Positions 6,036 to 52,457 of a DNA stretch of 64,000 nucleotides are shown one piece after another. The stretch covers positions 83,343 to 147,342 of the forward strand of contig JBEKMM010000004.1 of assembly GCA_050008515.1 (NCBI GenBank). Direction: 5' to 3'. This DNA comes from Candidatus Limnocylindrales bacterium (GTDB lineage: Bacteria > Chloroflexota > Limnocylindria > Limnocylindrales > CSP1-4). The translations under genes and the position numbers were made by a program. Positions within the stretch are counted from its first letter, which is position 1. Each line of letters begins with the position of its first letter. The notes beneath the pieces were generated by a model. That model was not told the DNA's origin and ran no database searches. It saw only the letters and a list, made by a program, of their open reading frames with translations.

Positions 6036-6153
6036 TCCTGGGCATCTGCCTTTCTGCGCGTCACCCACCACGCTCTTGAGCGTGAGGGCTCTACTCGGAT
6101 CGGAGGTCTCGATGGGGGCCTGGAATGGCGTAGGCCCCCATCGAGGGTGTCGA

Positions 6154-7590: not shown

Positions 7591-7683
7591 TTGCTCACTC
7601 ACTCTAGGTTTGTCGCTCAATTGCCCTTGTCGTCTGAGCTGAAAGATCCCCTTGGAGAGCGTGTCTGGGCCGTCACACCATCC

Positions 7684-18244: not shown

Positions 18245-18853
18245 CTAGCGATCCCCCTCGATCCAGCCCTGCCGCTGGGCCACGCGCACGAGCGACGTCC
18301 GGCTCGTCACGTCGTAGCGATCGAACATCCTCCTGAGCTGGCTCTCGACGGTCTTGACGCGGAGGGACAGGCGTTCGGCGATCTCGGAGTTGGCGTGGCC
18401 CTCGGCCACGAGCGCCAGGATCTGGGCCTCGCGCGGCGTCGGCAGGCGTAGAGCCGTGCGTGCGGCTCGGCGGACAGCGTCCGGGAAAGCCGTGCCCCCA
18501 GCGGCGACCGTTCGCACGGCTGTGACGATCTGTCCGATGCTCGCCATCTTCGAGAGATAGCCCTTCGCCCCGTGCTCGACCGCGGCGACGTAGTAGCTCG
18601 GATAGGAGTACGCGCTCAGCATGATGAACGCCGGGCCCGGCGTGTGGCGGGCCAGGATCTCGAGGCCGTCCACCGTCCCGGCCAGGCGGATATCGCACAG
18701 GATGACGTCGGGGGATTGGGCCTCGATCAGGCGGTCGGCTGCGATGCTGTCCTGCGCTGTCCCAACAACGGTCACGTCGAGCTCGCCGCCCAGAAGTGCC
18801 GTGAGCCCCTCGGCGATCGCAGGATGATCCTCGATGATCGCGAGCCGGATCAC
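18245..18853 (-). CDS. LuxR/NarL-family response regulator (REC + HTH)
   Basis: REC domain (IEDHPAIAEGL...ILCDIRLAG) and a C-terminal LuxR-type HTH (REAQILALVAEGHANSEIAERLSLRVKTVESQL). Start overlaps the HK stop by 4 nt. Confidence 0.9.
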   Translation of the reverse strand: MIRLAIIEDHPAIAEGLTALLGGELDVTVVGTAQDSIAADRLIEAQSPDVILCDIRLAGTVDGLEILARHTPGPAFIMLSAYSYPSYYVAAVEHGAKGYLSKMASIGQIVTAVRTVAAGGTAFPDAVRRAARTALRLPTPREAQILALVAEGHANSEIAERLSLRVKTVESQLRRMFDRYDVTSRTSLVRVAQRQGWIEGDR

Positions 18854-21800: not shown

Positions 21801-22152
21801 CCAGCAACACGTCGATGGAGGGTGCGACTGCGCCGGCCTTGGCCGCGCGAAGCCGCAGGGCGCCGGAGCTGATCTCGACGAGCCGGTTCGAAGGAACGAC
21901 GAAGATCACGCCGTCCTCCAGGGCCTCCCGCTCCTCGACCACTCGGACGGGCAGCGTGGCGTGGCGGGCGAGAATCTCGTGCAGATGGCTGGGGCGGCGG
22001 GGGTCGAGATGCTGCGCGATCACGATCGGCGCCGGGAAGTCGGCCGGCAGGCTCGCCACCACGCGCGAGAGCGCCTCGATGCCGCCCGCCGATGATCCGA
22101 TCACGACGAGCTGAGATTCCTGGGGGACCGCCGGTCGCGCCACGATGGCCAC
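18850..22152 (-). CDS. CheB methylesterase-CheR methyltransferase-PAS-coiled coil-PAS-histidine kinase fusion protein
   Basis: CheB (GSSAGGIEAL, IAQHLDP); CheR SAM-binding region (IWSAGCSTGEEAYS); heptad coiled-coil NEELETLNEELTASVEELRVANEDL; PAS modules; HisKA (AGHELKTPVAAL); HATPase_c (GLGLGLYVAREIV). Confidence 0.85.
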   Translation of the reverse strand: MAIVARPAVPQESQLVVIGSSAGGIEALSRVVASLPADFPAPIVIAQHLDPRRPSHLHEILARHATLPVRVVEEREALEDGVIFVVPSNRLVEISSGALRLRAAKAGAVAPSIDVLLESAAGVFGPGLIAVILTGSGSDGSAGAWHVKKAGGAVVIENPATAMFPSMPSSIPPSLVDATADLDSIGRILGDLLAAGNAPAEGPDHDELRDLLERIHERSGIDFSSYKPATILRRLRGRMNATSRPTLAAYAAYLESDPEEFARLVNSLLIKVTEFFRDPKLFEYLRGRVLPELIAEARRDQRELRIWSAGCSTGEEAYSAAIIVADALGEEFPWPEVRIFATDIDREAIAFARRGVYQPAALKGLPAGARDRYFVKSDGGYEVGKRLRALMVFGEHDLGERAPFPRIDLLLCRNVLIYFTAPMQRIALETFAFSLRPGGRLALGPSETVMALPEPFEEEQARLRVYRRLPGSYAIPPMRPAVLRPRRSQESQLDQAIRVTHRDVRRVADSSASADSLLLNLTVGIVVVDPRYYILRINSAARQMLGIHGTAYDQDFIHLAEVLPPSAIRAAIDSALTGKTTSAVFEVEPSDAASETTHFVEATVRPYRVEMQAVEGVVIELTDATRLEQERRADLRTRQRLEKAVATNGRLLRANEELAALVAELRAANESMLLASEDAQATREEVETVNEEFQATNEELETLNEELTASVEELRVANEDLATRTEELSVKTTALEQQRLSLQEEHDRLRSILASLGDAVVAVDHEGRIVATNDAYDRTFGGVEAEIEPEDAAGLPIPRADWPQRRAARGERFRMEFAVTPPGGIRRWFEAVAEPLTAGDRTWGGVVTIRDLSERTMRLSLERLMASAGHELKTPVAALHGYLQLVERHLGPEDSAQARAYANRALAQTRQIGELVERLFDVSRIQAGRLELAIAPIDLTAVVRNAVEVAGALPKAPPIRVSSTRGPIFVQADAGRLGQVFVNLLSNAVEHAATSSTVDVTVRRSGSTGVVEVRDHGPGIGSSVLPQLFQPYTLLGQKPSAGLGLGLYVAREIVTAHGGTIEVESVLGLGTAFMVRLPLGRRRPRAAGRPGAEAGAGART

Positions 22153-36011: not shown

Positions 36012-36189
36012 GAGCCCGGACCCGCCGGTCACGCGCCGCAGATCGTCGGTCCGACGAGCGCAGGCCAAGGCGACGACGAACATCGCAGCGAGCGCACCCG
36101 TAGGTGCGTGAGCGAGAAGCACAGGAGCCAACGCAGGAATGAGCCGGCTGACCGAGCGAATGCAAGCGGCGATCGGCGGATCCGGGCTC
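36012..36189 (+). repeat. intergenic structured repeat element, copy B
   Basis: Homologous to 1902..2079 and 61857..62010. Terminal stem gagcccggacccgccgg/ccggcggatccgggctc. Internal hairpin cgcacc-cgta-ggtgcg. Confidence 0.7.
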
Positions 36190-36215
36190 TAGCGTCGAGG
36201 CGGTATCGTTCGGCC

Positions 36216-37556
36216 ATGCCAACGCGCAGCGAGATCGTCGAGGTCTCCGGCCGACAGGTCGCGATCACCAACCCGGACAAGGTCTACTTCGCCGGACCGG
36301 GCTACACCAAGCGCGATCTCGTCGCCTACTACATGGCCGTGGCCGCGGGAGCCCTGAGGGGAGCAGGTGGGCGGCCGATGGCGCTGAAGCGCTACGTCAA
36401 CGGCGCCGACGGCGACTTCTTCTTCCAGAAGCGCGCCCCCGATTCGCGCCCCGATTGGATCCAAACCGTCGAGATCTCGTTTCCGTCCGGTCGCACGGCC
36501 GACGAGATCGTGATCGACGACGCGGCCGGACTGGCCTGGATCGCCAACCTTGGCTGCCTCGATCTCAACCCGCACGCGGTCCGTGCCGACGACCTAGACC
36601 ACCCCGACGAGTTGCGAGTCGACCTCGACCCGGTCCCGGGCGTGCCCTGGAACGACATCCGGCGAGTCGCGCTCGTCACGCGCGAGGTGCTCGCCGACGT
36701 GGGCCTGGTGGGCTGGCCCAAGACCTCGGGTTCGCGCGGCATCCACGTCAACGTCCGGATCGAGCGGTGCTGGTCCTTCGACGAGGTCCGTCGCGCGGCG
36801 CTGGCGCTGGCCCGCGAGGTGGAGCGGCGCGCACCCACGATAGCCACGAGCAAGTGGTGGAAGGAAGAACGCCACGGCGTCTTCATCGACTACAACCAGA
36901 ACGCCAAGGACCGAACGGTCGCGTCTGCGTACTCGGTTCGGCCGGTGCCCGATGCCCGCGTCTCGGCGCCTGTGACCTGGGACGAGCTGCCCGAATGCGA
37001 GCTGGGCGACTTCACGATCGCGACGGTGCCGGCCCGGTTCGCCGCAGTCGGCGATCCAGCCGCCGGGATCGACGCGGCGGTCGGGTCGCTGGACGGGCTG
37101 CTCGAGTTGTCGGCGCGGCAGGCGAAGGCGGGGCAGGGCGACGCGCCGTGGCCACCCAACTACGCCAAGGCCCCCGGCGAGCCGCCGAGGGTCGCGCCGT
37201 CGCGTGCTCGCAAGCCGGCCAGCGGTGCGGCCGGCGGCGGGCCCAGCGGCGCGCCCAGCGGCCCGAGCCCCCGGGCGCCCTCGCCGACCGGTCGTCGCGC
37301 GTCCACCAAGCCGCTGATCGAGATCGCCCGAGCGGCCACCAGGGAGGCGGCTCTCGCCGCGTTCGAACGCTGGAAGTCGCGCCACGCCGGCGTTGTCGCC
37401 CACCTCGAGCCGTCCGACCTGCTGGTCGATTCGATGCGCGGGCGCTTCACGCTCTGGTATCGCATCCGCGTCAACCTCGAGCACGTGCCCGAGCCGGAGC
37501 GCCCGCCGCAGGAACCCCTCGACGCCGACTACGATCCGTGGAGTCAGTATCGCTGA
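36216..37556 (+). CDS. LigD-type polymerase (primase-polymerase, PolDom) domain protein with C-terminal extension
   Basis: N-terminal 300 aa match the NHEJ polymerase domain (KVYFAGPGYTKRDLVAYY, FFFQKRAPDSRPDWI, DLDP, SRGIHVNVRI). Low-complexity Pro/Ala tail follows. Confidence 0.8.
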   Translation: MPTRSEIVEVSGRQVAITNPDKVYFAGPGYTKRDLVAYYMAVAAGALRGAGGRPMALKRYVNGADGDFFFQKRAPDSRPDWIQTVEISFPSGRTADEIVIDDAAGLAWIANLGCLDLNPHAVRADDLDHPDELRVDLDPVPGVPWNDIRRVALVTREVLADVGLVGWPKTSGSRGIHVNVRIERCWSFDEVRRAALALAREVERRAPTIATSKWWKEERHGVFIDYNQNAKDRTVASAYSVRPVPDARVSAPVTWDELPECELGDFTIATVPARFAAVGDPAAGIDAAVGSLDGLLELSARQAKAGQGDAPWPPNYAKAPGEPPRVAPSRARKPASGAAGGGPSGAPSGPSPRAPSPTGRRASTKPLIEIARAATREAALAAFERWKSRHAGVVAHLEPSDLLVDSMRGRFTLWYRIRVNLEHVPEPERPPQEPLDADYDPWSQYR

Positions 37557-37598
37557 ACGGCCAGGCTGGCACGGCCCCGCCCGCCGACCCGGACCCGC

Positions 37599-38648
37599 CT
37601 ACCCTCCGAAGATCTCCTTGAGCTCGAAGGGGGCGGTCGTCTCCAGCTGGTCGTAGCGGCAGTCCGAGGGGCTCTTGTCGGGGCGCCAGCGCAGGAAGGT
37701 GGTGGCGTGGCGGAAGCGATCGCCCTGCAGGTGGTCATACGCGACCTCGCAGACGCGCTCGGCCCGCAGCGGCTCCCACGAGAGATCGCGGTCGCGGTTC
37801 CAGCGACTCACCGCGCCGGGCATGCGCTGGCCGGACTCGCGCGCGGCGGCCTCCCATTCGGCCCATTCGGCCCAGGGGTGCCCGTCGAGGGCGCCGGCGC
37901 GCAGCGGCGCGAGCTCCTCCGTCAGCGCGACGCGCCTCTCGGTCGTGAAGCTGGCCGTGATGCCGACGTGGTTCAGCCGGCCCGTGTCGTCGTACAGCCC
38001 GAGCAGCAGCGAACCGACCATCGTGCCGGGGCCGTTCTTGTGCCAACGGAAGCCGGCCACGACGCAGTCGGCGGTCCGGGCGTGCTTGATCTTGGCCCAG
38101 CCCCGCTTCCCCGGCTGGTAGCCCTCGGTCAGCCGCTTGGCCACGACTCCGTCCAGGCCCGCGCCCTCGAAATGGTGGAACCACTCGGTGGCGCGTTCGG
38201 GGTCGCGAGTCGCGGGCGTCAGGTGGATCGGCGGCGCGGCGTCCCGAAGCAGCACCTCCAGCAACTCGCGGCGCTCGCCCTGGGGCGTGGCGCGCAGGTC
38301 GCGGTCATCGAAGGCGAGGAGATCCCAGGCCACGTAGCTGGCGGGGGTCTGCGCCGCGAGCAGCTTGACTCGCGACGCGGCGGGGTGGATGCGCAGCAGC
38401 AGCGAGTCGAAGTCCAGGCCGTCGGGTCCGGCGATCACGACCTCGCCATCGAGGATGCAACGGGCGGGCAGGTTCGCTCGCAGGGCGGGCGGCAGCTCGG
38501 GGAAGTAGCGGTCGAGCGGCTTGAGATCGCGGCTCTGGATGAAGACCTCGTCGCCGTCGCGGAAGACCAGGGCCCGGAAGCCGTCCCACTTGGGCTCGTA
38601 CTGCCAGCCGGCGCCGGCTGGGATCCCGTCGGCGAGCTTGGCCAGCAT
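37599..38648 (-). CDS. ATP-dependent DNA ligase (LigC/LigD ligase-domain type)
   Basis: KxDG adenylation motif (EPKWDGFRALVF) and downstream ligase motifs (DGEVVIAG, DGVVAKR). Start taken at MLAKLADGIP (38646-38648). Confidence 0.85.
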   Translation of the reverse strand: MLAKLADGIPAGAGWQYEPKWDGFRALVFRDGDEVFIQSRDLKPLDRYFPELPPALRANLPARCILDGEVVIAGPDGLDFDSLLLRIHPAASRVKLLAAQTPASYVAWDLLAFDDRDLRATPQGERRELLEVLLRDAAPPIHLTPATRDPERATEWFHHFEGAGLDGVVAKRLTEGYQPGKRGWAKIKHARTADCVVAGFRWHKNGPGTMVGSLLLGLYDDTGRLNHVGITASFTTERRVALTEELAPLRAGALDGHPWAEWAEWEAAARESGQRMPGAVSRWNRDRDLSWEPLRAERVCEVAYDHLQGDRFRHATTFLRWRPDKSPSDCRYDQLETTAPFELKEIFGG

Positions 38649-39118
38649 CGGCTCGAGCGGCGGCTGGAACGGCAGGTTCACGCCGCGACTATAGCCGAGG
38701 CGGTCGGCGGCGCCGACTTGTGCCGCTTCCGCGCCCAGGCCGCGACACGTTCCCCCAGCACGCCTGGAGGGAGCACTAGGTCGAACCAGAGCCGCGGGCA
38801 CGCCGCCCTGGCAGTCGACTCGGCCTATTTCGAGTCACTCGGACCGGCCGGAGCAGCTCTCCGACACCACCATGGGGCCGAACGGGGTCACGAAGCGCCT
38901 GGGCGACCGCAGTTCTCCGCGCAGCACTCCAGCCATGCGTATCGGGCAAGAAGCCGAGGCCGGCCCGACAGGGGCACGGGCCGGTCCGCCGCCCCCGCGT
39001 CCGGGGGAACGTGAGGCCCGCCCCAGGACGACAAACGGCCCTATGCCGGCCGGGCGAGGATGGGGCAACCTCGAAGACCCGGATCGGATCGGGATGCAGC
39101 AGCCAGGTGGTGAATCGA

Positions 39119-40432
39119 ATGGCGAAGGCTGGAACCGCGACTGGCGAGCGCAACTTCGAGGTGGTCGGGATCGCGCGCGTCGAAGGCGAGGGCACACTCA
39201 AGCTGCGCATCACCGACGGCGAGGTCAAGGAGGCTCGCCTCTCGATCTTCGAGGCGCCCCGCTACTTCGAGAAGCTCGTCGTGGGGCGCATGCCCAACGA
39301 GGTCGTCGACATCGTGGCGCGGATCTGCGGCATCTGCCCGGTCGCCTACCAGATGGGCGCGTCGATGGCCTTCGAGCACCTCTTCGAGGTCGAGATCGAC
39401 CCCCAGGTTCGGGCCCTGCGCAAGCTCTTCTACTGGGGCGAATGGATCGAGAGCCACGCCCTCCACGTCTACATGCTCCATGCCCCGGACTTCCTGGGCT
39501 ACGAGAGCGCGATCGCCATGGCCCGCGATCACAAGCACATCGTCGAGCAAGCCCTCCGGCTCAAGCGGACCGGCAACGAGATCATGAAGCTGATCGGAGG
39601 CCGGGCGATCCACCCCGTCGCGATGCGCGTCGGCGGCCTGTCGAGGACCCCCACGAAAGCAGAGATAGCGGCGCTGCACGATCCGCTCAAGGAAGCGCTC
39701 GACCTGTCGAAGGCGACGCTCAAGCTCGTCGGCGCGTTCAAAGCGCCGGCATTCGAGCGCGACCCGCTCTACGTTGCCATCAAGCACCCGATCGAGTACG
39801 GCCTCAACGAGGGCCGGATCGTCTCAACCGACGGGATCGACGTGCCGATCTGGGGCTGGCGCGAGGCTTTCCACGAGGAGCACCACGAAGGCACGAACGC
39901 CCTCCACGCCCGAACCAACGACGGCCGAACGTACATGCTCGGGCCGGCCGCGCGCGTGACCCTCAACGCCGACCAGCTCCATCCGATCGCCCGCGAGGCG
40001 CTCGGCGCCAGCGGCCTGGCGAAGCAGATCGCCCGCAACCCGTACTGGAGCATCGCCGCCCGCGCCGTGGAGCTGATCCACGCTTCGGCCTCGGCGCTCG
40101 ACATCGTCAAGACCTACGAGGAACCGGCCCGGCCGTTCGAGGCCTGGACGCCACGGGGCGGCGAGACGGGCTGGGGCTCGGAGGCGCCGCGCGGCATCTG
40201 CTGGCACCACTACGACGTTGACGACAACGGGCGCATCCTGGCGGCCCAGATCATCGCCCCCACGGGACAGAACCAGGGCATGATCGAGCAGGACCTGACC
40301 GGGTTCGCACCGCAGGTCCTGTCCCTATCTCACGCCGAGGCCACGGTGCGCCTGGAGCAGCTGATTCGAGCTTACGACCCCTGCATCAGCTGCGCGACGC
40401 ACTTCCTCACGCTCGAGATCGAGCGCGACTGA
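39119..40432 (+). CDS. [NiFe]-hydrogenase large-subunit homolog (short, about 437 aa), no adjacent small subunit
   Basis: N-terminal Ni-binding motif RICGICP and C-terminal DPCISCATH followed by a 9-aa tail; overall NiFe large-subunit architecture. AGGTGG RBS before ATG 39119. No FeS small-subunit gene on either side. Confidence 0.7.
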   Translation: MAKAGTATGERNFEVVGIARVEGEGTLKLRITDGEVKEARLSIFEAPRYFEKLVVGRMPNEVVDIVARICGICPVAYQMGASMAFEHLFEVEIDPQVRALRKLFYWGEWIESHALHVYMLHAPDFLGYESAIAMARDHKHIVEQALRLKRTGNEIMKLIGGRAIHPVAMRVGGLSRTPTKAEIAALHDPLKEALDLSKATLKLVGAFKAPAFERDPLYVAIKHPIEYGLNEGRIVSTDGIDVPIWGWREAFHEEHHEGTNALHARTNDGRTYMLGPAARVTLNADQLHPIAREALGASGLAKQIARNPYWSIAARAVELIHASASALDIVKTYEEPARPFEAWTPRGGETGWGSEAPRGICWHHYDVDDNGRILAAQIIAPTGQNQGMIEQDLTGFAPQVLSLSHAEATVRLEQLIRAYDPCISCATHFLTLEIERD

Positions 40433-40542
40433 TCGTCGGGCGGCCGGCACATCCCTTCGTTGGCGCCTGCGCTCCTCGGTGCTCTACGCCGCCTCGGCCT
40501 GCGCTCGGCGGCCCGGCGATCTCGCGTACTCTGGGGAACGAA

Positions 40543-41349
40543 GTGATCGAACTCTTCTTCAAGATCGTGCTGCCGGTGCTGATGATCGGCATCGTCACGC
40601 TCGTCAGCCATCGCTACGGACCCTCCGTCGGAGGCATCCTCGGCGCCGTTCCGGCGAAGGGCGGCCCGATCCTGCTCTTCCTGGCCCTGGATCAAGGGCG
40701 GTCCTTCGCCGCCACCTCGGCCGCGGCCTCGCTCGGCGGAGCCGGCGGCTGCGGCGTCTTCTGCCTGGTCTACGCCCTGGTCTGCCGCCGGGTGAGCTGG
40801 CCACTGGCGGGGGCGGCGGCGTACGGCGCGTTCGTCGCGACCTGGGCGGTGATGCTGCCCATCTCGTCCTGGGGTCTCGGGCCGGCGTTCGTGGCCACGC
40901 TGTCCATTCTGATCGTGTCGAGACGGCTGCTACCCGAGGCGCCCCCGGTCGGAGGCCGTCGGGCGACGACCCTGACCGACCTGCCGGCGCGGATGCTCAC
41001 CGGGGCCGGCATGGTCGTCTTCGTCACGACTGTCGGGCCGTACTTCGGGGCCACCATCAGCGGCATGCTGACGACGATCCCGACTGTGGCCGCGGTGCTG
41101 GCGCTCTTCACCCACGCCCAGGAAGGCCCCGAGCGGACGATCGGCGTCATGCGAGGCCTGACCCATGGCCTGCTCGGCTTCGCCGCATTCCTGACGGTCG
41201 TTGCTGCGACCCTCGTGCCGTTGGGCATCGCCGGAGCTTTCGCGCTGGCCGGCACGGCCGTGGTCGCCGTCCAGCTCGTCGAGCTGCGGTCGGCCCTGCG
41301 GGAGCGCCGACCGGAGGCGGTGCCCGCCGGCCTGGAAGCCGCGGAGTAA
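40543..41349 (+). CDS. polytopic membrane protein of unknown family (paralog 1, internal two-fold repeat)
   Basis: GTG start. Six or more TM helices. Motifs RYGPSVGG and FTHAQEGPE are shared with the 42728..43516 product. Confidence 0.55.
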   Translation: MIELFFKIVLPVLMIGIVTLVSHRYGPSVGGILGAVPAKGGPILLFLALDQGRSFAATSAAASLGGAGGCGVFCLVYALVCRRVSWPLAGAAAYGAFVATWAVMLPISSWGLGPAFVATLSILIVSRRLLPEAPPVGGRRATTLTDLPARMLTGAGMVVFVTTVGPYFGATISGMLTTIPTVAAVLALFTHAQEGPERTIGVMRGLTHGLLGFAAFLTVVAATLVPLGIAGAFALAGTAVVAVQLVELRSALRERRPEAVPAGLEAAE

Positions 41350-41365
41350 CGAGCGAAGGCGAGGC

Positions 41366-42049
41366 TCAGCCCTGTTTCGAGCCCACCCGGACACTGATGG
41401 TGCCGGCGGTGCGGGTGCGCGCCTGGATCGCTTCCCAGCCCGAGATCGCCGTCGTCATGTGAGCCTCGGCCGTGGCGACGTGGAACGATTCGTCGGTGCC
41501 CCCGCGCAACGGCGAGACGTCCGGAGCGTAGTGCTGGCCTGGTGGGATCGGGCCGCACTGTTTGGCCGCCCTGGCCAGCCGCTCGGAATCGCACAGCGCT
41601 CCAGGAGCGACGAGCAGCTCGCCCAGCAGCTCGTCGAGGTCACGGCCCAGCAGGAACACCTCCATCGTGTCCGGCATGAAGAGCTCCGGCAGGGCGACGG
41701 TGCCCTGCCAGCGGAATCCCAGCTGGTCGCCGAACGGCGTCTGCCCGAAGAAGAAGGGCCCGCCCTGCTTGGGCGGCGAGTAGACCGACCGCCACCACGG
41801 GGCGGCGTTCCATTCGAGCACCTCCGGGCCGGGCAGTCCGGAGCCGGCGTCGCCGAAGATGTAGATCTCGCCGCCGCCGAAGGAGCCCGCGCCGACTCGA
41901 AGCCAGAACAGCTGCAACGCAGCTGGCACGGAGATTCCGAACCGCTCCTCAATCGCCTCAGCCAGCGACACGCCGTCCACCGGGTGCGTCTGACCGGGAA
42001 TCGGTGGGTAGGCGGCGAGGAACGACCGGAAGGAAGCGTCCCGCTTCAT
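41366..42049 (-). CDS. hypothetical cytoplasmic protein (possible SMI1/KNR4 or SUKH-like fold)
   Basis: 227 aa. FGISVPAALQLFWLRVGAGSFGGGEIYIFGD resembles Smi1/Knr4 family cores. Assignment is tentative. Confidence 0.35.
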   Translation of the reverse strand: MKRDASFRSFLAAYPPIPGQTHPVDGVSLAEAIEERFGISVPAALQLFWLRVGAGSFGGGEIYIFGDAGSGLPGPEVLEWNAAPWWRSVYSPPKQGGPFFFGQTPFGDQLGFRWQGTVALPELFMPDTMEVFLLGRDLDELLGELLVAPGALCDSERLARAAKQCGPIPPGQHYAPDVSPLRGGTDESFHVATAEAHMTTAISGWEAIQARTRTAGTISVRVGSKQG

Positions 42050-42196
42050 TCGTACCCCACTGGGTGACTCGTCCTCCAGCCCGCTTCAATCCGAACGTCA
42101 GCTGAGACTCTACTCCGTCGGCCGCATCAAGGGGCGACGAATGCACGGTACCGGTGACGCGGCGAACCGCCCCCGATCGGCCGCTAGACTGCCGGA

Positions 42197-42724
42197 ATGA
42201 GCGACCAATCCGGGCGGCCGAGCGTGCGGGTGCTGCTCTGCGGGGAGCGCATGCGGGGCGACGACGCGGCCGCGCTTCGCGCCGCCGAGATGCTGCCCGA
42301 GGACGCGCGGGCGCTTGCCGAGGTGGTCGAGGTAGGGCAGCTGTCCGTGGAGGCGTTGCTCGACATCCCGGACGGAGTGGCGGCTATCGTCGCCGACTCG
42401 GCTGTTGGAGTGGCTCCGGGCGTGGTGGTCACGCTGCCGTTGGAGCATGTGGCGCAGGGCGCGGCCGGCGGCCCCGGCGCGGCCGGCGGCCCCGGCGCGG
42501 CCGGCGGAGCGACCCCGGCCTCCTCCCATTCGCTCCCCCCGGACCAGGTTCTGGCTCTGGCGGCGGAGTTGCGCGGGTCGTTGCCACGGGGCGTCTTCGT
42601 TGGGATCGGCGGCGCCGAGTTCGGTTTCGGGGAGCGGCTGTCGCCGGCGGTGGCGGCGGGGCTCGCCGCATACGCAGCGACTCTCGCCGACGAGATCCGG
42701 CGGCTCTCGGCGGACGAGCCCTGA
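42197..42724 (+). CDS. hydrogenase maturation endopeptidase (HycI/HyaD/HoxW family)
   Basis: VLLCGERMRGDDAAAL (N-terminal metal-binding Asp region), a His-containing segment, and GVFVGIGGAEFGFGERLSPAV typical of hydrogenase C-terminal processing proteases. Confidence 0.65.
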   Translation: MSDQSGRPSVRVLLCGERMRGDDAAALRAAEMLPEDARALAEVVEVGQLSVEALLDIPDGVAAIVADSAVGVAPGVVVTLPLEHVAQGAAGGPGAAGGPGAAGGATPASSHSLPPDQVLALAAELRGSLPRGVFVGIGGAEFGFGERLSPAVAAGLAAYAATLADEIRRLSADEP

Positions 42725-42727
42725 CCC

Positions 42728-43516
42728 GTGGCGCTTCTCCTGCTGAAGCTCTCCCTGACGCCGATACTGATCGGATCGGCGAGCCTGGCCGCGCGCCGCT
42801 GGGGTCCGTCGGTGGGCGGCTGGCTGGTGGCGTTGCCGCTGACCTCCGGGCCGGTCGCGCTGTACATCGCCCTCGACCGAGGCACGGCTTTCGCCGCGGG
42901 CACGGCCGAAGGCTCGATCGGTGGCCTGCTCGGGGACGCCGCGTTCGCCCTTGGTTATGCCTGGCTGGCGCGTCGCTTCGGTTGGCTCGCATCCATGCTC
43001 GGCGGTTTCGGGTGCTTCGCCATCGCGGCGCTGGCGATGCAGCCGTTCATCACCGGCCCGGCCGTCCTCCTGTTCGCCATCGTGGCGGTAGCGATGGTCA
43101 TCGGCCTGCGCCTCGCCCCGGCCGTTTCCGCCGCCGGCGGCATCACGCCGCTACCCCGCTGGGACATACCCGCCCGAATGGTGGTCGGCACCTCGATCGT
43201 GCTCGCCATCACCGAGGCGGCCTCGGTCCTGGGACCGCAGCTGAGCGGGATCCTCGCCGCCTTCCCGATCTACGTCACCGTGCTGGCCGTCTTTGCCCAT
43301 CGGCTGGAGGGCCCCGAGCCGGCAATGGGCGTCGCCCGCGGTCTCCAGGTCGGCCTCTTCGGCACGATCGTCTTCTTCCTGGTGGTCACCAGCACCATCG
43401 AGAGCCTGGGCATCGGATTCGCCTTCGGTGCCGGAACCCTGGCGACGGTCGCGGTTCAATCGGTCTCCTTGCGGCTGGTTCGACGGCCCGTGTCTACCTC
43501 GGTGAGTGCGCCGTAA
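42728..43516 (+). CDS. polytopic membrane protein of unknown family (paralog 2)
   Basis: GTG start 4 nt after the protease stop. Shares RWGPSVGG and FAHRLEGPEP motifs and overall topology with the 40543..41349 product. Confidence 0.55.
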   Translation: MALLLLKLSLTPILIGSASLAARRWGPSVGGWLVALPLTSGPVALYIALDRGTAFAAGTAEGSIGGLLGDAAFALGYAWLARRFGWLASMLGGFGCFAIAALAMQPFITGPAVLLFAIVAVAMVIGLRLAPAVSAAGGITPLPRWDIPARMVVGTSIVLAITEAASVLGPQLSGILAAFPIYVTVLAVFAHRLEGPEPAMGVARGLQVGLFGTIVFFLVVTSTIESLGIGFAFGAGTLATVAVQSVSLRLVRRPVSTSVSAP

Positions 43517-43524: not shown

Positions 43525-43566
43525 TGACAGGACATGCATACTGGTACGTATGTCTGACCAGTCAAC
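43525..43566 (+). promoter_or_regulatory. candidate promoter/operator upstream of the TetR-ABC operon
   Basis: Perfect TTGACA hexamer and an inverted repeat CATAC-N6-GTATG spanning the ATG of the TetR gene. Confidence 0.3.
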
Positions 43567-44359
43567 CCGGGGGACGATCCTGAGCGCGGCTCGTCGCCAG
43601 CTCCAGGCAAGCCCGACCGCGCTCTCCGTTCAGGCGATCGCGGCCGAGGCGGGAGTCTCGCGCCAGACGATCCACCACTACTTCGGCGGCCTGCGGGGGC
43701 TGCGAGCGGCTCTCGCAGCCGAGGGGCTGGACACCTCCGCCAGCCAGGACGAGCCCACGCGCGACCGGCTGATCGACGCCGCCCAAAGGCTGTTCTCGCG
43801 GCCCGGCAGCGGCCTGATCTCCGTCGAGGCCATCGCCGCCGAGGCTGGGCTGACCAAAGGCGCGATCTACCACCATTTCGACGACAGGGCGGAGCTCCTC
43901 CGCGAAGTCGCCCGCTGGGTCAGCCCGGTCGGCGAGATGCGGGCCCAGATCGAGCCGTCGATCGGGCTCGGTGCGCGGGAGGGCTTGATTGCCATCGCCC
44001 GAGCCTATTACGCGGCGATGCGCGCCCGGGCCGATCTGATCCGCAACCTTGCCGCCAACTCGTCGCAGGACCCTGAGCTTGCTCGCGTCGTCATGTCCGA
44101 GATGATCGGCCAGGGCGTCCCGCTGATGCTCGCCTGGTATGGGCTTCAGGTTGAGAAGGGCAACCTGCGCCCGATCGATCCGGCCTTGCTGATCCAGGGC
44201 CTCTTCGGCCCCGTCTTCCTGCTCATCGTCCTGGGCCCGACCGTCTTCGACGAGCTGGCCCAGATCGGTATCCATCCCGTTGTCGACAACGTCGAGGCCT
44301 ATGTGGACCTGCTCCTGCACGGCGCCGCGCAGCCCGACGGCAGCTCAGGAGGTAACTAG
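43550..44359 (+). CDS. TetR-family regulator with two tandem TetR_N HTH modules
   Basis: Two HTH-like segments: LSVQAIAAEAGVSRQTIHHYFG and ISVEAIAAEAGLTKGAIYHHFD. Confidence 0.8.
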   Translation: MSDQSTRGTILSAARRQLQASPTALSVQAIAAEAGVSRQTIHHYFGGLRGLRAALAAEGLDTSASQDEPTRDRLIDAAQRLFSRPGSGLISVEAIAAEAGLTKGAIYHHFDDRAELLREVARWVSPVGEMRAQIEPSIGLGAREGLIAIARAYYAAMRARADLIRNLAANSSQDPELARVVMSEMIGQGVPLMLAWYGLQVEKGNLRPIDPALLIQGLFGPVFLLIVLGPTVFDELAQIGIHPVVDNVEAYVDLLLHGAAQPDGSSGGN

Positions 44360-45160
44360 ATGGCAGCCGCTCCAGCTCCTCTCGCGCCGGCGCTCGAGGC
44401 AATCGCCCTGCACAAGAATTTCGGGCCGATCCACGCCGTGGACGGGATCGACATGGCGCTACCTCCCGGCCGGATCTACGGGCTGCTCGGCCCGAACGGA
44501 TCCGGCAAGACCACGCTCATCCGGCTCCTGGCCGGCCTCGCGTCGGCGACGAGCGGCAGGGCCCGCGTCCTGGGAGTGGAGATGCCGTCGCGCCCGAACC
44601 TGGCGCGCATCGGGTACATGACCCAGTCCGACGGCATCTACCCCGAGCTGTCGGTCTGGGAGAACCTGTCGTTCTTCGCCGCCCTCTACGGCCAGACCGA
44701 CAGGGCCGAGCTGATGCACTCCCTCGAGCTGGTGGAGCTTGACAAGCGGACCGGGACGCCGGCCCAGAACCTCTCCGGCGGGATGCGACGCCGCCTGTCG
44801 ATGGCTTGCGCGCTGGCCCATCGCCCGACCGTCATCTTCCTCGACGAACCCACGGTCGGCGTGGACCCGGCCCTGCGAGTCCAGTTCTGGGACCACTTCC
44901 ACCGGCTGGCCGCGGGCGGAGCCACGCTCCTGGTCTCGAGCCACGTCATGGACGAGGCCGACCGCTGCGACGAGCTGCTGTTCATCCGCGACGGGCACGT
45001 CCTAGCGCAGGGGACGCCGGCCGAGCTCCGAAAGCGGGCCGGCACTGACAGCCTCGAAACCGCCTTCCTCCGGTTCGCGGGCGAAACCCCCACCGGGTCC
45101 GCGACGACCGCCCGCGAATCCGCCGCTTCCGGCGCAGCCGCGAAGGAGACCAACCGATGA
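44360..45160 (+). CDS. ABC transporter ATP-binding protein
   Basis: Walker A GPNGSGKTT, signature LSGGMRRRL, Walker B IFLDEPTVGVD. Confidence 0.9.
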   Translation: MAAAPAPLAPALEAIALHKNFGPIHAVDGIDMALPPGRIYGLLGPNGSGKTTLIRLLAGLASATSGRARVLGVEMPSRPNLARIGYMTQSDGIYPELSVWENLSFFAALYGQTDRAELMHSLELVELDKRTGTPAQNLSGGMRRRLSMACALAHRPTVIFLDEPTVGVDPALRVQFWDHFHRLAAGGATLLVSSHVMDEADRCDELLFIRDGHVLAQGTPAELRKRAGTDSLETAFLRFAGETPTGSATTARESAASGAAAKETNR

Positions 45161-46308
45161 ACCCGCTTCGCGTCGCCGCCGTCTTCCGCCGGATCGTGGC
45201 CCAGTTCCGCCGCGACCCGCGATCCCTGGCCCTTCTGTTCGTCGCGCCCGTGGCGATCATCGCTCTGCTGGCCTGGGTCCTGAGCAGCCAGCAGTCCACC
45301 GCGGCTCGCGTGGCCGTCCTCAACGAGTCGGCCAATCCCGCCGGTACTGCCGTTGCGACCCAGCTTGCGTCGGCGCTCGACGGTCAGGCCGGCATCGTGG
45401 TCGACCGATCGGTCGTCGACGACGCGACTGCCCGGCAGATGCTCAAGGACAAGAAGCTCAACCTGGTCGTCATCCTGCCCGCGGACTTCAGCGTCCAGAA
45501 CCGCAAGATCGAGCTGCTCACGCTGGGACTCAACCCCACGGGCGAAGCTTCGGTCATTCCGGCGGTCCAGAAGGCGCTGCTCGGCGCCGTTGCCGACAGC
45601 GCGGGCGCCGCGCTGCCGACGATCGAAAGGGCGACCGTCTACGGCTCGCCGGACGCCACCCAGCTCGACTCGCTCGCCCCGGTCGTGGTCGGCTTCTTCG
45701 CCTACTTCTTCGTCTTCATCCTGACCGGCATCAGCTTCCTGCGCGAACGAATCGGCGGGACGCTGGAGCGCCTGCTGGCGACCCCGGTCAGTCGGGCGGA
45801 GATCGTGCTCGGCTACAGCCTGGGCTTCGGCTTCTTCGCAACACTTCAGGTCGCCATCGTGATGGCCTTCGTCCTGGGCCGCCTGGACATCCCGGCGCTC
45901 GGGCCGGTCCCGGCATTCGCGATGGGCCTGGGCGTACGAACGATCGGCAATCCGTTGATCGCCTACCTGCTCGTGCTGGTCCTGGGGCTCGGCGCGGTCT
46001 CGCTCGGCATCTTCCTCTCGACCTTCGCGCGGACGGAGTTGCAGATACTCCAGTTCATCCCGATCGTGATCGTGCCGCAGGGCCTGCTCGGCGGGTTCTT
46101 CTGGCCGATCGAGCAGCTGCCCGACCTGCTCCAGCCCGTCGCCCGAATCTTGCCGGTCACATACGCCATCGACGGCCTGCGCCAGGTGATGATCGCGGGC
46201 GCCGACCTGACCTCGGGACAGGTGCTCCTGGACCTGGGCGTGCTCGTCGGAATCGCGGCCTTCTTCGTGGTCCTGGCGGCGGGCACGATCCGGCGGGAAG
46301 TGGCGTAG
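45157..46308 (+). CDS. ABC-2 family transporter permease
   Basis: Six TM helices with ABC-2 type topology. 4-nt overlap with the ATPase gene. Confidence 0.85.
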   Translation: MNPLRVAAVFRRIVAQFRRDPRSLALLFVAPVAIIALLAWVLSSQQSTAARVAVLNESANPAGTAVATQLASALDGQAGIVVDRSVVDDATARQMLKDKKLNLVVILPADFSVQNRKIELLTLGLNPTGEASVIPAVQKALLGAVADSAGAALPTIERATVYGSPDATQLDSLAPVVVGFFAYFFVFILTGISFLRERIGGTLERLLATPVSRAEIVLGYSLGFGFFATLQVAIVMAFVLGRLDIPALGPVPAFAMGLGVRTIGNPLIAYLLVLVLGLGAVSLGIFLSTFARTELQILQFIPIVIVPQGLLGGFFWPIEQLPDLLQPVARILPVTYAIDGLRQVMIAGADLTSGQVLLDLGVLVGIAAFFVVLAAGTIRREVA

Positions 46309-46618
46309 GGCCCGCGCGGACGGCGCCGCGCGGACGGCGCCACGCCACGTTAGGTGCATGCGTCCGGTGACTGCTAACGGCGCTTGCGGCTCCGCCACCT
46401 TGCGTTTATGCGTGGGGTGACTCGTATCGACGTTCGGCACATCTGGAGCGGGTCGGAGGGGGCTCTTGCCCCGCCCGAGACGTCTCGGCCACGCTCGGTT
46501 GGGCGCCCGGTCGCCGGATCGCAACGCCAGAAGAGGGCCCGCACCTGGATAGCAGTCATCGGGTGCATGAACATGAAGTCATGGGTGCGAGGCAGCGCCG
46601 CGGCGGCTCGCTCGGCCG

Positions 46619-48004
46619 CTAGACGGGCAGGCGGGCCCGGGCGCTCCGCAGCCGCGCGCCCAGGCCGTGGCGGCGCGGACCGGCGATGACCAGCGCCACG
46701 GACCAGGCCAGGAGCGAGGCCATGACCACGCCGTAGACCAGCCAGTAGTTGCCCAGGCGGTCGTAGGAGATGCTGCCGACGTTCATGACGATGATCCCGC
46801 CGGTCGGGTAGGCCACGGCGATGATTCCGAAGATCGCTCCGAAGTTGTGGCCCCCGAAGACGTCGGAGAACGCGGCCGACCGGATCGCGATCGTCGCCCC
46901 GATGCCGAAGCCGTAGAGCGTGTATCCGGCCGCGGCCAGGGCCGGCGTCGCGCCCGTTGAAGCGAAGATAGCCGTCGCCCCGCCGGCGATCATCGCGGCG
47001 CAGATGAGGCCGATGTAGCGCCGCCCGAATCGATCGGACAGTCCACCTCCCAGGACCTGGCCGACCACATACGCATAACAAGACACGGCCAGCAAGATGG
47101 CCGCGTAGTCCGCAGTCATGCCCTGCGCCACGACATGGCGCGGCGACATCTGGTAGATGCCCTCATCGATGCAACCGATGCCGACCGCTCCGACGAGCAG
47201 GATCAGGAAGCGGCGGGTCCGCAGCGTGCGCCGAAGGACGTCGGGCCGCGAGCGACTGCCGGGCGGGAGTGGCTCCTGGGACGCGGCGATCGCGCCGGGC
47301 GCCGAGGTCTCATGCAATCCCCTGCCCGTTTCGCCGCCCCGTGGCGCCGCCGCGCTCTTCGGCGCCGCGCCTGCCGCCGTCCCGCTCGGTCCGTGGCGCG
47401 AGCCCCGCGCCGGGAAGATCACCGCCGCCCCGGTCGTCATGAGCCACACGAACGGAACGGCGAGGAGCGACATCGCCGCGAACACGAGGGCCATCGAGCG
47501 CCAGCCCAACTCCGGAATGGCGCCGGCCGCCAGCGGCAGGATGACGGCCACGCCGATCCCCGGACCCGCGTACGCCACACCGAGCGCGAGCCCCGCCACG
47601 CCGGCATAGCGGCGGGCGACTGCGGTCGTGGTCCCGACGAAGGTCAGCTGCAGCCCCAGGGCCAGGAAGACGCCATACGCGGCGACGAGGAGGGCAACGT
47701 CCGAAGCCACGGACGCAACCACCCAGCCGAGGGCGATCAACAGGACTCCGACCGTGAGCAAGAGCCGGTCCCCGAAGACATCGAAGGCGCGGCCAAGGAG
47801 CGGTGAGGCCAGGGCCGAGACCACCAGGAACATCGTCCAGGGCATCTGGCCGAGCTCGCGCGAGACATGGAAGGTGGTCTCGAACTCGGGTGCCAGCAGC
47901 GGGAAGCAGTACAGGGGCGCATAGGCGATCGCCCCCACGACGAAGGCCCCGAGGACGGGCAGGCTGCGGATCGCGTCCCTCCGCGGGGAGCTCAGGCTGG
48001 GCAC
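46619..48004 (-). CDS. MFS transporter
   Basis: Twelve TM helices and MFS signature-like loops. Confidence 0.85.
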   Translation of the reverse strand: MPSLSSPRRDAIRSLPVLGAFVVGAIAYAPLYCFPLLAPEFETTFHVSRELGQMPWTMFLVVSALASPLLGRAFDVFGDRLLLTVGVLLIALGWVVASVASDVALLVAAYGVFLALGLQLTFVGTTTAVARRYAGVAGLALGVAYAGPGIGVAVILPLAAGAIPELGWRSMALVFAAMSLLAVPFVWLMTTGAAVIFPARGSRHGPSGTAAGAAPKSAAAPRGGETGRGLHETSAPGAIAASQEPLPPGSRSRPDVLRRTLRTRRFLILLVGAVGIGCIDEGIYQMSPRHVVAQGMTADYAAILLAVSCYAYVVGQVLGGGLSDRFGRRYIGLICAAMIAGGATAIFASTGATPALAAAGYTLYGFGIGATIAIRSAAFSDVFGGHNFGAIFGIIAVAYPTGGIIVMNVGSISYDRLGNYWLVYGVVMASLLAWSVALVIAGPRRHGLGARLRSARARLPV

Positions 48005-49963: not shown

Positions 49964-50662
49964 GTGGCTGCCACCATCCTGATCGTCGAGGACGAATACG
50001 CCGTCGCTCGCGGGATCCAGTACGCGCTCCAGCAGGAGGGCTATCAAGTCGCGGTGGCGCGTTCGGGCGAAGAGGGGCTCGAGGTCGCCATGCGCGAGGC
50101 GCCCGATCTGGTCGTCCTGGACGTCCGCCTGCCCGGCATCGACGGCTTCGAGGTCCTGCGCCGGATGAGGATGGGCGGGAGCAAGGCGCCGGTGCTGATC
50201 CTCACGGCGCGCGACGAGGAGATGGACAAGGTCATCGGCCTGGAGCTCGGCGCGGACGACTACGTCACCAAGCCCTTCGGCCTGCGCGAGCTGATGAGCC
50301 GCATCAAGGCACTACTGCGCCGGGCCTACGGCGACCTGTCCGATGCGGGCGGGGGACGGATGCTGCGCCACGGCGATCTGCTGATCGACCTGGAGCGGCG
50401 GCGCGTCCAGCGCGGCGAACGGCGCATCGGCCTGACGGCCACCGAGTTCGAGATCCTGCGCCACCTCGCCAGCCGCCCCGGGCGGGTCTACTCGCGACGC
50501 GAGCTGCTCGAGCTGATCCGCGACTATGAAGCGCTGGACCAGGACGAGAAGACGATCAACGTCCACATCAGCCACCTGCGCGAGAAGCTCGAGGACGACC
50601 CATCCAGCCCCAAGTTCGTGCTAACGGTGCGGGGCGCGGGGTACGCCTTCGCTGAGCGCTGA
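49964..50662 (+). CDS. OmpR-family response regulator
   Basis: REC domain (ILIVEDE...LVVLDVRLPGIDG) plus a winged-helix trans_reg_C domain. GTG start. Confidence 0.9.
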   Translation: MAATILIVEDEYAVARGIQYALQQEGYQVAVARSGEEGLEVAMREAPDLVVLDVRLPGIDGFEVLRRMRMGGSKAPVLILTARDEEMDKVIGLELGADDYVTKPFGLRELMSRIKALLRRAYGDLSDAGGGRMLRHGDLLIDLERRRVQRGERRIGLTATEFEILRHLASRPGRVYSRRELLELIRDYEALDQDEKTINVHISHLREKLEDDPSSPKFVLTVRGAGYAFAER

Positions 50663-50672
50663 GGCCAACGTC

Positions 50673-52457
50673 ATGAGCCCGGAGAGACCGATCGGGCCGA
50701 CCGTGGAGTCGCCGGCGCCCGAATCGTCGGGCAACGGCATAACTGACGACGGCACCGCCGGCGTCACCCCCAGGGGCAGGCGATCGATTCGCATCCATGT
50801 GCCGCTGCCCCGCACCTTCCAGGGTCGCCTGTCGCTCGCGTTCGTCGCGGTCTTCGCCCTGGCCGTCGGGATCGTGTCGGGCGTGACGGTCTTCGTCCTG
50901 GACCGCGACCTGCGCCAGCAGGACCAGGCCACTCTCGAGGCCCGCGCAAAGGCGGTCGCGGCGGTGCTGCGTGTCCAGGCGGAAGACATCGCCGCCCGGG
51001 ACCCCCAGGATCAGACCGTCGTGTCGGCCGCTGGAGTGCTCAACGACGACGTCCGATCGGTCTTCGAGAGCACGCTCCCCGATTACGCCAACACGGTGGC
51101 CCTGGCCGATCTGCGAGTGCGTTTCGGGTTCGGATCCGAGACTTCCACGGGCACCTTCTTCATTCCCGCAAGCGAGCCATCCACCTTCACCGCCCAGCTG
51201 ACGAGCAAGCCCGGGCGCGGGCAGACGCGCGATGCGATCAGCTACACCGAGGTCTTCAGGTTCGCCGACACCACCGGCGTGAGGCCGACCTGGTACCTGG
51301 AGGTCAGCCTCTCGGCGCCGTACTCGACTCGCGAGAGCACGATCGCGGCGGTGGTTGGGTTTCTGACCCTGTCCGCGATCGGCGCGCTGGTCCTCGCGGT
51401 CGTCGTCTCCTCCCTCCTGGCCCGGCGATTCACGGCGCCGTTGCGGCGGCTCACCGAGGCGGCTCGAGCGCTCGCCGACGGCGACCTCGACCGGCGCGTG
51501 CCGGCCGACAGAGCCCGAACCGGCGCCACCGAGATCACCGAGCTGTCGCGCCAGTTCAACGCCATGGCGGCCCAGGTCCAGGAGACGATGGACGTCATCG
51601 TCCGCGACCGCGACCGCAGTCGCGAGTTCCTGGCCGATGTCTCTCACGAGCTGCGCACCCCGCTGGCGGCCCTCCGAACCTTCAACGAGCTTCTCCGCGA
51701 GAAGGCCGGCGAGGACCCGGCCGCCCGGACCGAATTTCTCGAATCGAGCGCTCAGCAGCTCGAGCGACTCGACTGGCTGGCCCAGAACCTGCTCGAGCTG
51801 TCCAAGCTCGACTCCGGTCTGGTGCGCCTCGACCTGCGGCCCGACGACCTGCGCGCGACCGTCCTCTCGGCGACGGAGCAGGCCGAAGCCGCCGCCCGCC
51901 GGCGCGGCGTCAGCCTCACCACAGAGCTGCCCGACGGGACGCTCATCGTCCGTCACGATCCGCCGCGCATCGGCCAGGTCGTGAGCAACCTCGTCGGCAA
52001 CGCCCTCAAGTTCACTCCGCGCGGCGGGTCCGTCACCCTCAAGCTCTCCCCGCATCGCGGCGGCGGCGCCCGGATCCAGGTCATCGACACCGGCGTCGGC
52101 ATCGACGCGGCGGAGCTGCCCCACATCTTCGACCGCTTCTACCGCGGATCGCGCTCCAGCGAGGCGCGCAGCAGCGGCAGCGGACTCGGATTGGCGATCG
52201 TGCGCTCGATCGTGGAGATGCACGGTGGCCGGATCGGCGTCGAGAGCCGGGTTGGGTCGGGGTCCACGTTCACGGTCACTCTCCCGGCGGACCCGCGCAT
52301 GCCGGCGGAACGTGCCGCGGCGGCGATCCCCGAGGGAGTGGCCAAAGGCGCGTCGAAGGGCGCCGTCAAAGGCGGGGCAGGAGCCGAATCGGCCGCGGCA
52401 ACCACTTCCGCGGCCCCCAGGGCCGCCGCGCCGAAGTCATCCGCACGCGGCGAATAG
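50673..52457 (+). CDS. sensor histidine kinase (TM-HAMP-HisKA-HATPase_c)
   Basis: EFLADVSHELRTPLAAL (H-box), N/G-box motifs. 10 nt downstream of the response regulator. Confidence 0.9.
   Translation: MSPERPIGPTVESPAPESSGNGITDDGTAGVTPRGRRSIRIHVPLPRTFQGRLSLAFVAVFALAVGIVSGVTVFVLDRDLRQQDQATLEARAKAVAAVLRVQAEDIAARDPQDQTVVSAAGVLNDDVRSVFESTLPDYANTVALADLRVRFGFGSETSTGTFFIPASEPSTFTAQLTSKPGRGQTRDAISYTEVFRFADTTGVRPTWYLEVSLSAPYSTRESTIAAVVGFLTLSAIGALVLAVVVSSLLARRFTAPLRRLTEAARALADGDLDRRVPADRARTGATEITELSRQFNAMAAQVQETMDVIVRDRDRSREFLADVSHELRTPLAALRTFNELLREKAGEDPAARTEFLESSAQQLERLDWLAQNLLELSKLDSGLVRLDLRPDDLRATVLSATEQAEAAARRRGVSLTTELPDGTLIVRHDPPRIGQVVSNLVGNALKFTPRGGSVTLKLSPHRGGGARIQVIDTGVGIDAAELPHIFDRFYRGSRSSEARSSGSGLGLAIVRSIVEMHGGRIGVESRVGSGSTFTVTLPADPRMPAERAAAAIPEGVAKGASKGAVKGGAGAESAAATTSAAPRAAAPKSSARGE

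Follow-up and report, generated by a model that had tools for sequence, protein, structure and literature searches.

[NiFe]-hydrogenases are generally regarded as needing at least two subunits: the large subunit (LSU) is accompanied by a small subunit (SSU), to which electron transport and the shielding of the active site are attributed. In the closest described systems, the cytoplasmic, NAD(P)-linked group 3b enzymes (Pyrococcus furiosus SHI, HydBGDA; Thermococcus kodakarensis Hyh; M. smegmatis Hyh), the LSU is part of a heterotetramer, and the iron-sulfur (FeS) SSU (delta, Oxidored_q6 type) and the beta and gamma diaphorase subunits are encoded with it. HoxG, the LSU of the membrane-bound hydrogenase of Cupriavidus necator, has reportedly been studied in vitro in isolated form. 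A survey of Chloroflexi left out genomes whose LSU had no SSU gene in the vicinity (bioRxiv 10.1101/2021.08.23.457424), and our literature search found no account of naturally SSU-less [NiFe] LSUs, nor a detailed one of the hydrogenases of Limnocylindria. Here we describe a 64-kb stretch of Candidatus Limnocylindrales DNA (~70% G+C; analyzed as a whole and called the window below) in which a gene for a group 3b-type LSU is accompanied by a gene for a maturation endopeptidase and by no gene for an SSU. The components of this locus are known, and the conserved, selected SSU-less arrangement, reached by a putative deletion in situ, appears to be undescribed.

The large subunit and its missing partners

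The window LSU scores 97 bits against the Pfam family NiFeSe_Hases (cutoff, 25.8). Its best full-length NCBIfam matches are the models for the alpha subunits of two Pyrococcus sulfhydrogenases, ShyA (267 bits) and HydA (238 bits), compared with 140 bits for FrhA and 128 for VhuA, and group 1 models score lower. Searches of the PDB give the same picture, with 227 bits for SHI alpha and 218 for HyhL versus 151 for Mvh, 140 for Hox, and 115 for Frh; among solved structures, P. furiosus SHI alpha (428 aa, E = 4.6e-66) comes closest, followed by T. kodakarensis HyhL (E = 2.9e-63). Since SHI alpha, HyhL, and the sulfhydrogenase alpha models are the best matches, the protein appears to be a group 3b-type LSU of normal length. 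Based on these profile and PDB scores and on a neighbor-joining tree, in which it is nested within Candidatus Limnocylindrales 3b sequences, we conclude that the LSU is of group 3b type and is not a new lineage. Its Ni-binding motifs, its closest sequences, and the combination of a C-terminal tail with an endopeptidase all place it, at the level of sequence, in that group.

The open reading frames (ORFs) between positions 39119 and 43516 are as the first-pass annotation of this DNA gave them. The LSU is intact at 437 aa and does have the two Ni-binding Cys pairs and the cleavable tail that had been read from it (RICGICPVAY and DPCISCATH, then the nine residues FLTLEIERD); the RICGICP and DPCISCATH motifs and the tail are invariant across 31 clade sequences. 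The suggestion that this is a divergent or new lineage did not survive. It had been based on the short length of the protein and on the missing His after the first CxxC, and both are common to canonical relatives. Tyr-for-His substitution after CxxC was rejected as a marker of novelty, since canonical Limnocylindria enzymes that have SSUs also carry the Tyr of RICGICPVAY.

The absence of partner genes, on the other hand, extends further than the first-pass annotation had stated. With queries from a canonical relative, tblastn found no match to an SSU, a fused beta-gamma diaphorase, or HypC in the 64-kb window, and Pfam scans of its ~56 ORFs found no hydrogenase, hyp, or diaphorase family besides the LSU itself. 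Likewise, no SSU, diaphorase, or HypC gene lies within ±10 kb of the LSU gene in the genomes of 30 species, and a regulator of the cyclic-nucleotide (cNMP)-binding type is absent from all 30 of these loci. The other subunits of the group 3b heterotetramer are therefore not encoded with the LSU in any of these stretches. It had also been allowed that the LSU might fall in an established group whose SSU is routinely encoded elsewhere. The first part of this holds and the second does not: the LSU is in group 3b, and, in keeping with the rule that hydrogenase structural genes are normally adjacent, the SSU gene abuts the LSU gene in every canonical relative examined.

The nearest database proteins to the window LSU are 83 to 91% identical to it, are nearly all 437 or 441 aa long, and come from peat, fen, and soil metagenomes and from metagenome-assembled genomes (MAGs) named Candidatus Limnocylindrales, phylum Chloroflexota. 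The 30 species come from Stordalen Mire, SPRUCE (a peat experiment), and Danish soils; they were identified by scanning species-representative genomes, and their LSUs are 82 to 94% identical to that of the window. Gene order is the same in 30/30: LigD primase-polymerase, ligase (opposite strand), LSU, variable genes, protease, variable genes, and TetR/ABC/MFS genes. The protease gene is found in all 29 loci that extend that far. The LSU ORF is intact in 29 of the 30 species and frameshifted in the remaining one (locus L032), and one locus (L020) has a stop within the protease match. In the neighbor-joining tree, 107 solitary LSUs form a monophyletic clade, and all are 435 to 443 aa long. Several of the 30 loci lie on contigs of 0.5 to 0.9 Mb, with long-read contigs of up to 0.94 Mb, and independent assemblies with the arrangement come from Stordalen, SPRUCE, Danish soils, and JGI metagenomes. 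The same SSU-less order is seen again in 30 species-representative genomes and on several metagenome contigs and is therefore no accident of assembly, such as the contig-join error against which the first-pass annotation had warned. A more distant solitary LSU, P0077 (locus L038, positions 319 to 1629), shares 78% identity with the window LSU. No SSU or protease gene is adjacent to it; DUF2461 and HXXEE genes follow instead on its 3.4-kb contig.

In at least 30 species, purifying selection on both the LSU and the endopeptidase is strong. The LSU has a dN/dS of 0.125 at a dS of 0.64 (31 sequences with intact ORFs), which is the lowest value of the neighborhood (ligase, 0.133; LigD, 0.152; two membrane protein paralogs, 0.16 and 0.20; MFS transporter, 0.21; protease, 0.257). 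Its evolution is not accelerated: the root-to-tip distance in the neighbor-joining tree is 0.70 for the solitary clade and 0.68 to 0.72 for canonical clades. Canonical enzymes are at least 95% conserved at 204 sites, of which 187 are unchanged in solitary LSUs, and the 8.3% that are changed or relaxed compare with 4.9 to 14.9% in three canonical subclades that have SSUs. By these measures, the gene is still in use, and the protein evolves as if its partner situation were unaltered.

Origin of the solitary locus

The relatives of the LSU at 64 to 70% identity are encoded in standard 3b operons, which consist of genes for a cNMP-binding regulator, a fused beta-gamma diaphorase (domains Fer4_22, NAD_binding_1, and DHODB_Fe-S_bind), an Oxidored_q6 SSU, the LSU, and the protease. 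Two of these operons lie in the same neighborhood as the window locus. In L035 (LSU 66% identical), which shares the left flank, the order is LigD-PrimPol, ligase, beta-gamma, SSU, LSU, and protease; in L036 (LSU 70% identical), which shares the right flank, it is beta-gamma, SSU, LSU, and HycI, followed by TetR, ABC-2, ABC, MFS, and ribosomal protein L25. The canonical operons are thus found within the flanks of the solitary locus, which would therefore be orthologous to them with the first three genes lost. Judging from this shared gene order, we conclude that the solitary locus is the ortholog of a canonical 3b operon minus regulator, diaphorase, and SSU.

The leader that precedes the LSU gene (Table 1) gives an indication of how the SSU gene was lost. 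Its sequence can be aligned with the final ~130 nt of the SSU genes in L036 and L130, in identical register relative to the LSU start, and the shared blocks include ACGAC-AA-GGC-CT, GGCA-CCTC, and AGCCAGGTG. When leaders were compared with L036, the score was reached by 1 of 300 dinucleotide shuffles for the window and by 0 to 1 of 300 for L038, L026, and L028; several other solitary loci were not significant in this test. A profile of 31 solitary leaders was searched with nhmmer against 16 loci outside the clade (15 canonical loci and L038). Its best canonical match is L036 9872-10001, which is the 3' end of the SSU gene and is collinear (E = 0.098), and it matches the leader of P0077 in L038 at E = 9e-7. 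The similarity is at the DNA level only, as tblastn found no SSU pseudogene match at E ≤ 0.1 in 19 regions upstream of the LSU. Based on the alignments, the leader is probably a remnant of the SSU gene, which would mean deletion in place and not relocation. The regulator gene, the diaphorase gene, and all of the SSU gene but ~130 nt were probably lost in an ancestor of the Limnocylindrales clade, and since P0077 carries the same leader, the putative deletion would be old.

The leader also contains a conserved noncoding motif (Table 1). Its 14-mer core, GACAAACGGCCCTA, occurs exactly once in each of 30 fetched solitary loci (27 of the 30 genome-scan loci, plus L001 to L003), always 75 to 90 nt before the LSU gene; it occurs in zero canonical loci and has a single exact match in the window. 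No Rfam family (e.g., the NiCo riboswitch) matched the leader at E ≤ 1, no sigma-70-like promoter was found in it, and terminator-like sites are no commoner in it than in shuffled sequence.

Table 1. Coordinates of the solitary locus in the window and of associated features in related loci
Feature	Position	Strand	Basis or occurrence
LSU leader, probable remnant of SSU gene 3' end, ending in Shine-Dalgarno-like block CAGCCAGGTGG	38977..39118	+	Alignment to L036
Conserved noncoding motif CGACAAACGGCCCTAT	39029..39044	+	75-90 nt before LSU start
[NiFe]-hydrogenase LSU, group 3b type, 437 aa, C-terminal extension	39119..40432	+	Pfam, NCBIfam, and PDB matches; dN/dS
Membrane paralog 1, 268 aa, all-helical, ~8-10 helices, widespread uncharacterized family	40543..41349	+	AlphaFold2 model; in 22/30 species
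227-aa protein, variable accessory gene	41366..42049	-	Weak SUKH/SMI1-KNR4 similarity; in 7/30 species loci
Hydrogenase maturation endopeptidase, HycI/HybD type, 175 aa	42197..42724	+	TIGR00072
Perfect 18-nt tandem repeat, 2.8 copies, within protease gene, encoding GAAGGP repeats	42458..42507	+	
Membrane paralog 2, 262 aa	42728..43516	+	40% identical to paralog 1; in ~20/30 species
Left flank: LigD primase-polymerase (36108-37556, +), ATP-dependent DNA ligase (37599-38801, -)	36108..38801		Conserved
Right flank: TetR regulator, ABC ATPase, ABC-2 permease, MFS transporter	43550..48004		Conserved
Inserted zinc-ribbon genes (other loci)	L007 1766-2602; L010 8901-9776; L012 8980-9849; L019 8915-9865		
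Inserted zinc-ribbon genes (other loci)	L020 6955-8988 (two tandem copies); L021 8685-9779; L023 8879-9823; L024 9155-9859		
End-joining genes linked to hydrogenase genes	Window 36108-38801; L035 1431-5889; L039 2569-7315 (with Ku); L047 580-3429; L048 19-300		

Possible roles of the solitary subunit

Our preferred reading, which we hold tentatively, is that the LSU, once matured, finds its SSU and diaphorase in a module whose genes lie elsewhere, and docks onto it. The LSU would be loaded with NiFe(CN)2CO by Hyp proteins encoded elsewhere, its C-terminal tail would be trimmed by the adjacent protease, as the presence of both tail and protease gene suggests, and it would dock onto an FeS SSU and diaphorase module from another locus and continue as the catalytic subunit of a hydrogenase that turns over H2. 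The likeliest source of partners would be paralogous group 3 operons, which are common in this order, and the two membrane protein genes would be accessory insertions at a variable locus, outside the enzyme. We favor docking because the former SSU interface is unremodeled, because genomes of this order can hold several group 3 operons and spare beta-gamma genes, and because an isolated LSU is a very poor catalyst (PMC8159394). The first of these points follows from the selection analysis: the constraints on the LSU are unchanged, which argues that the partner interface has been retained.

Subunit modules are duplicated in this order. P0080 (MGZ6340609.1), a 3b LSU of the sister canonical clade, and P0477 (MGZ6340017.1), an SSU of a different 3b clade, have accessions ~600 apart, and therefore one Limnocylindrales MAG probably encodes at least two 3b hydrogenases. 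In a separate observation, a HoxH-type (group 3d-like) hydrogenase, Ku, and LigD are encoded on one contig together with a complete 3b operon and, after the protease gene, a second fused beta-gamma gene (L039 1-14728, L040 1-5330).

Several results weigh against docking onto a module encoded elsewhere. No partner SSU was found in the 64-kb window or within ±10 kb in 30 genomes. In searches of a database of 5.8 billion proteins, no populous counterpart to the solitary LSU clade of more than 100 sequences is present among the 120 listed SSU matches nearest the L036 query; the only close SSU, P0158, belongs to a canonical operon; and of the 120 listed matches nearest the L035 query, none could be tied to a contig with a solitary LSU. 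No SSU has an NCBI accession near that of a solitary LSU. The SSUs inspected in their gene context (two populous clades, P0158, and P0184) all lie in canonical operons, which is a low-power test; indeed, all of these tests for a relocated SSU have little power because they are confined to database hits, contexts, and accessions. Finally, we know of no documented precedent for an LSU that pairs with the SSU of a paralogous operon.

A second reading, possible though rather unlikely, is that the LSU is a matured NiFe protein that was kept after SSU loss for a function of its own. It might activate H2 at a low rate, sense H2 or redox state via a protein partner, or serve as a regulator that bears a Ni/Fe cofactor. 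A widespread peat and soil lineage of Chloroflexota would then have an SSU-free [NiFe]-hydrogenase that activates or senses H2 without an FeS relay, a proposal that we consider doubtful to the same degree. The probable leader remnant fits a function without any SSU, as the cognate SSU gene would have been deleted in situ and not moved, and so does the lack of a sister SSU clade among the 120 listed matches nearest the L036 query. Over the 30 species, LSU and protease are the only invariant pair, and P0077 shows an LSU with the same leader remnant that is without an adjacent protease or SSU gene. A biochemical parallel exists in isolated HoxC, which has a complete cofactor and activates H2 in H/D exchange, although isolated LSUs are drastically less active (PMC8159394), and there is no known electron route without FeS clusters. 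The pattern of substitutions is also not what this reading predicts. If the former SSU interface had become exposed, it should have relaxed or turned from hydrophobic to polar, and neither change is seen. The fixed differences number six at strict thresholds (R139K, V169M, P228G, E366D, P380A, and S383G) and 11 at looser ones; all are conservative, and relaxed sites are not in excess.

The first-pass annotation had been struck by the fact that both hydrogenase-related genes are closely followed by membrane protein paralogs, and the layout is as it described: 110 nt separate the LSU stop from the start of paralog 1 and 3 nt separate the protease stop from the start of paralog 2, and the two proteins are 40% identical over 248 aa (E = 2e-45). 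The idea that this represents a functional pairing fared less well. Such a membrane-coupled redox or Ni-handling module, in which the LSU and the protease would each work with a paralog (e.g., in Ni import or in anchoring of the LSU), is in our judgment very improbable. At least one paralog is present in 29 of the 30 species loci, both are under purifying selection, their family has invariant Asp, His, and Arg residues, and their absence from canonical loci would put their arrival at about the time of SSU loss. However, either can be absent (paralog 1 from 8 of the 30 loci, paralog 2 from ~9, and both from L009 alone). The family is large, with 2,207 representative clusters at E ≤ 1e-3, and in 77 of 80 metagenome loci found by a single-protein scan (L050 to L129), no hydrogenase LSU or protease is near the family member; the other three loci belong to the same solitary clade. 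The paralogs have no Cys-rich or FeS motif, and the AlphaFold2 model of paralog 1 (all-helical; mean pLDDT, 93) has no convincing match to a solved fold or transporter. In addition, gains and losses of genes are frequent at this locus in general, as the zinc-ribbon genes inserted upstream illustrate. The paralogs are real, selected genes and not a fixed part of the unit. They are probably bystanders or accessory insertions, because they are present variably between species and because their family is widespread and unlinked to hydrogenases elsewhere. The simplest view of their pairing with the LSU, at a variable locus, is that it is a coincidence; they might conceivably have a role peculiar to this lineage, for example in metal handling.

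The least probable explanation, which we set aside almost entirely, is that the LSU gene is a decaying relic (a pseudogene in the making) or an assembly or binning artifact, for although the operon is clearly truncated and L032 and L020 carry the frameshift and the stop described above, 31 LSU ORFs are intact, the gene is the best conserved of its neighborhood, more than 100 database sequences of nearly constant length form one clade, and the arrangement repeats in independent assemblies, long-read contigs among them.

Neighboring features and comparison with known systems

The expectation of a dedicated maturation endopeptidase was borne out, as the product of the protease gene scores 58.2 bits against TIGR00072 (cutoff, 47.45). 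Its motifs are CG..R.DD, D, and SSH, and an alignment of 30 solitary with 6 canonical sequences shows the columns R.DD, (V/I)(A/V)D, and SSH to be invariant. These three columns may be equivalent to the metal ligands E16, D62, and H93 of Escherichia coli HybD. The window protease has no Pfam HycI match and no PDB sequence match; its orthologs in L036, L037, and L043 do match HycI. The insert that contains the tandem repeat differs in length between species, and therefore the protease loop tolerates expansion. The 227-aa protein encoded on the opposite strand resembles SUKH/SMI1-KNR4 at a Pfam E value of 0.0087, which is under the family cutoff.

In about 8 to 10 species, the interval between the ligase and LSU genes contains inserted genes of a rapidly evolving family, of which the window has no copy. 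Their products combine an N-terminal zinc ribbon (CxxC...CxxC) with a Pro/Ala-rich linker, a single transmembrane helix, and a conserved C-terminal domain. An ORF of 280 to 365 aa just upstream of the LSU was considered as a candidate SSU and was rejected, as it encodes this zinc-ribbon, Pro-rich, single-transmembrane-helix protein, which is unrelated to SSUs. Directly upstream of group 3b operons in several distinct Limnocylindria lineages, there are genes for nonhomologous end joining, namely, LigD primase-polymerase and ligase, split or fused. The linkage of these genes with 3b hydrogenases looks conserved and possibly reflects a shared dormancy or stress regulon. Elsewhere, the same-strand gene that most often precedes members of the membrane paralog family (13 of 77 loci, recognized by eye) is LamB/YcsF-like (PxpA, 5-oxoprolinase subunit A).

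Two other regions of the window are of note in themselves. In the 1100-aa product of positions 18850 to 22152 (- strand), a CheB methylesterase and a CheR methyltransferase are fused to PAS domains and a histidine kinase; the gene for a LuxR-type response regulator (18245-18853) comes next. Positions 4001 to 8000 have a G+C content of 0.63 compared with ~0.70 elsewhere, show strong swings in AT skew, and carry ABC sugar transporter genes (solute-binding protein, 6154-7620; permease, 5088-6071); this region may have been acquired horizontally.

An LSU that has outlived its cognate SSU in at least 30 species is a natural test either of what an LSU can do or of the recombination of modules in trans. 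It also bears on how hydrogenases are counted. Surveys that count LSU genes score these abundant peatland Limnocylindrales as group 3b H2 metabolizers, and surveys that demand an adjacent SSU discard them, so that they are misjudged under either rule.

Among described proteins, the DUF3147 small membrane proteins (Pfam PF11345) are the nearest to the membrane paralogs. Each half of a paralog weakly matches DUF3147 and PRK09272, and at ~265 aa the paralogs are roughly a tandem duplication of a DUF3147-sized unit, with scores under the gathering cutoff (paralog 2, 19.7 bits versus 23.6; paralog 1, no match); weak matches at E ≤ 0.01 are found in 6 of 58 family members. Like the endopeptidases HycI, HybD, and HoxW, the window protease keeps the acidic N-terminal motif, the mid Asp, and the His of SSH, and its gene lies downstream of the LSU gene. 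It differs from them in its variable Gly/Ala/Pro repeat insert and in the one or two inserted genes that separate it from the LSU gene.

Compared with the group 3b enzymes of P. furiosus, T. kodakarensis, and M. smegmatis, the window LSU can be aligned end to end with SHI alpha and HyhL and has likewise the L1 and L2 Cys motifs, the PRG loop, a cleavable tail, and a dedicated endopeptidase. In contrast with those enzymes, its locus has no delta, beta, or gamma gene in any of the 30 species, and the cNMP-binding regulator is gone too. The Tyr in place of His after the first CxxC is a further difference, which is Limnocylindria-wide and not peculiar to the solitary form. The regulatory, H2-sensing hydrogenases of group 2b combine an LSU that has no C-terminal extension with a HoxB-type SSU and a HoxJ-type kinase. 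The window locus has no SSU, and the nearest two-component system in the window (49964-52457) is a generic OmpR/HAMP pair; the window LSU, with its C-terminal extension and protease, groups with 3b.

HoxC, the LSU of the regulatory hydrogenase of C. necator, is not known to have a C-terminal extension or protease, whereas the window LSU has both. Work on isolated HoxC shows that the NiFe(CO)(CN)2 cofactor can be intact in an LSU that lacks its SSU and that such an LSU can split H2 (PMC8159394). However, isolated HoxC and HoxG are laboratory preparations of subunits whose SSU genes exist, while at the locus described here the cognate SSU gene has probably been deleted naturally, and the LSU has persisted through speciation.

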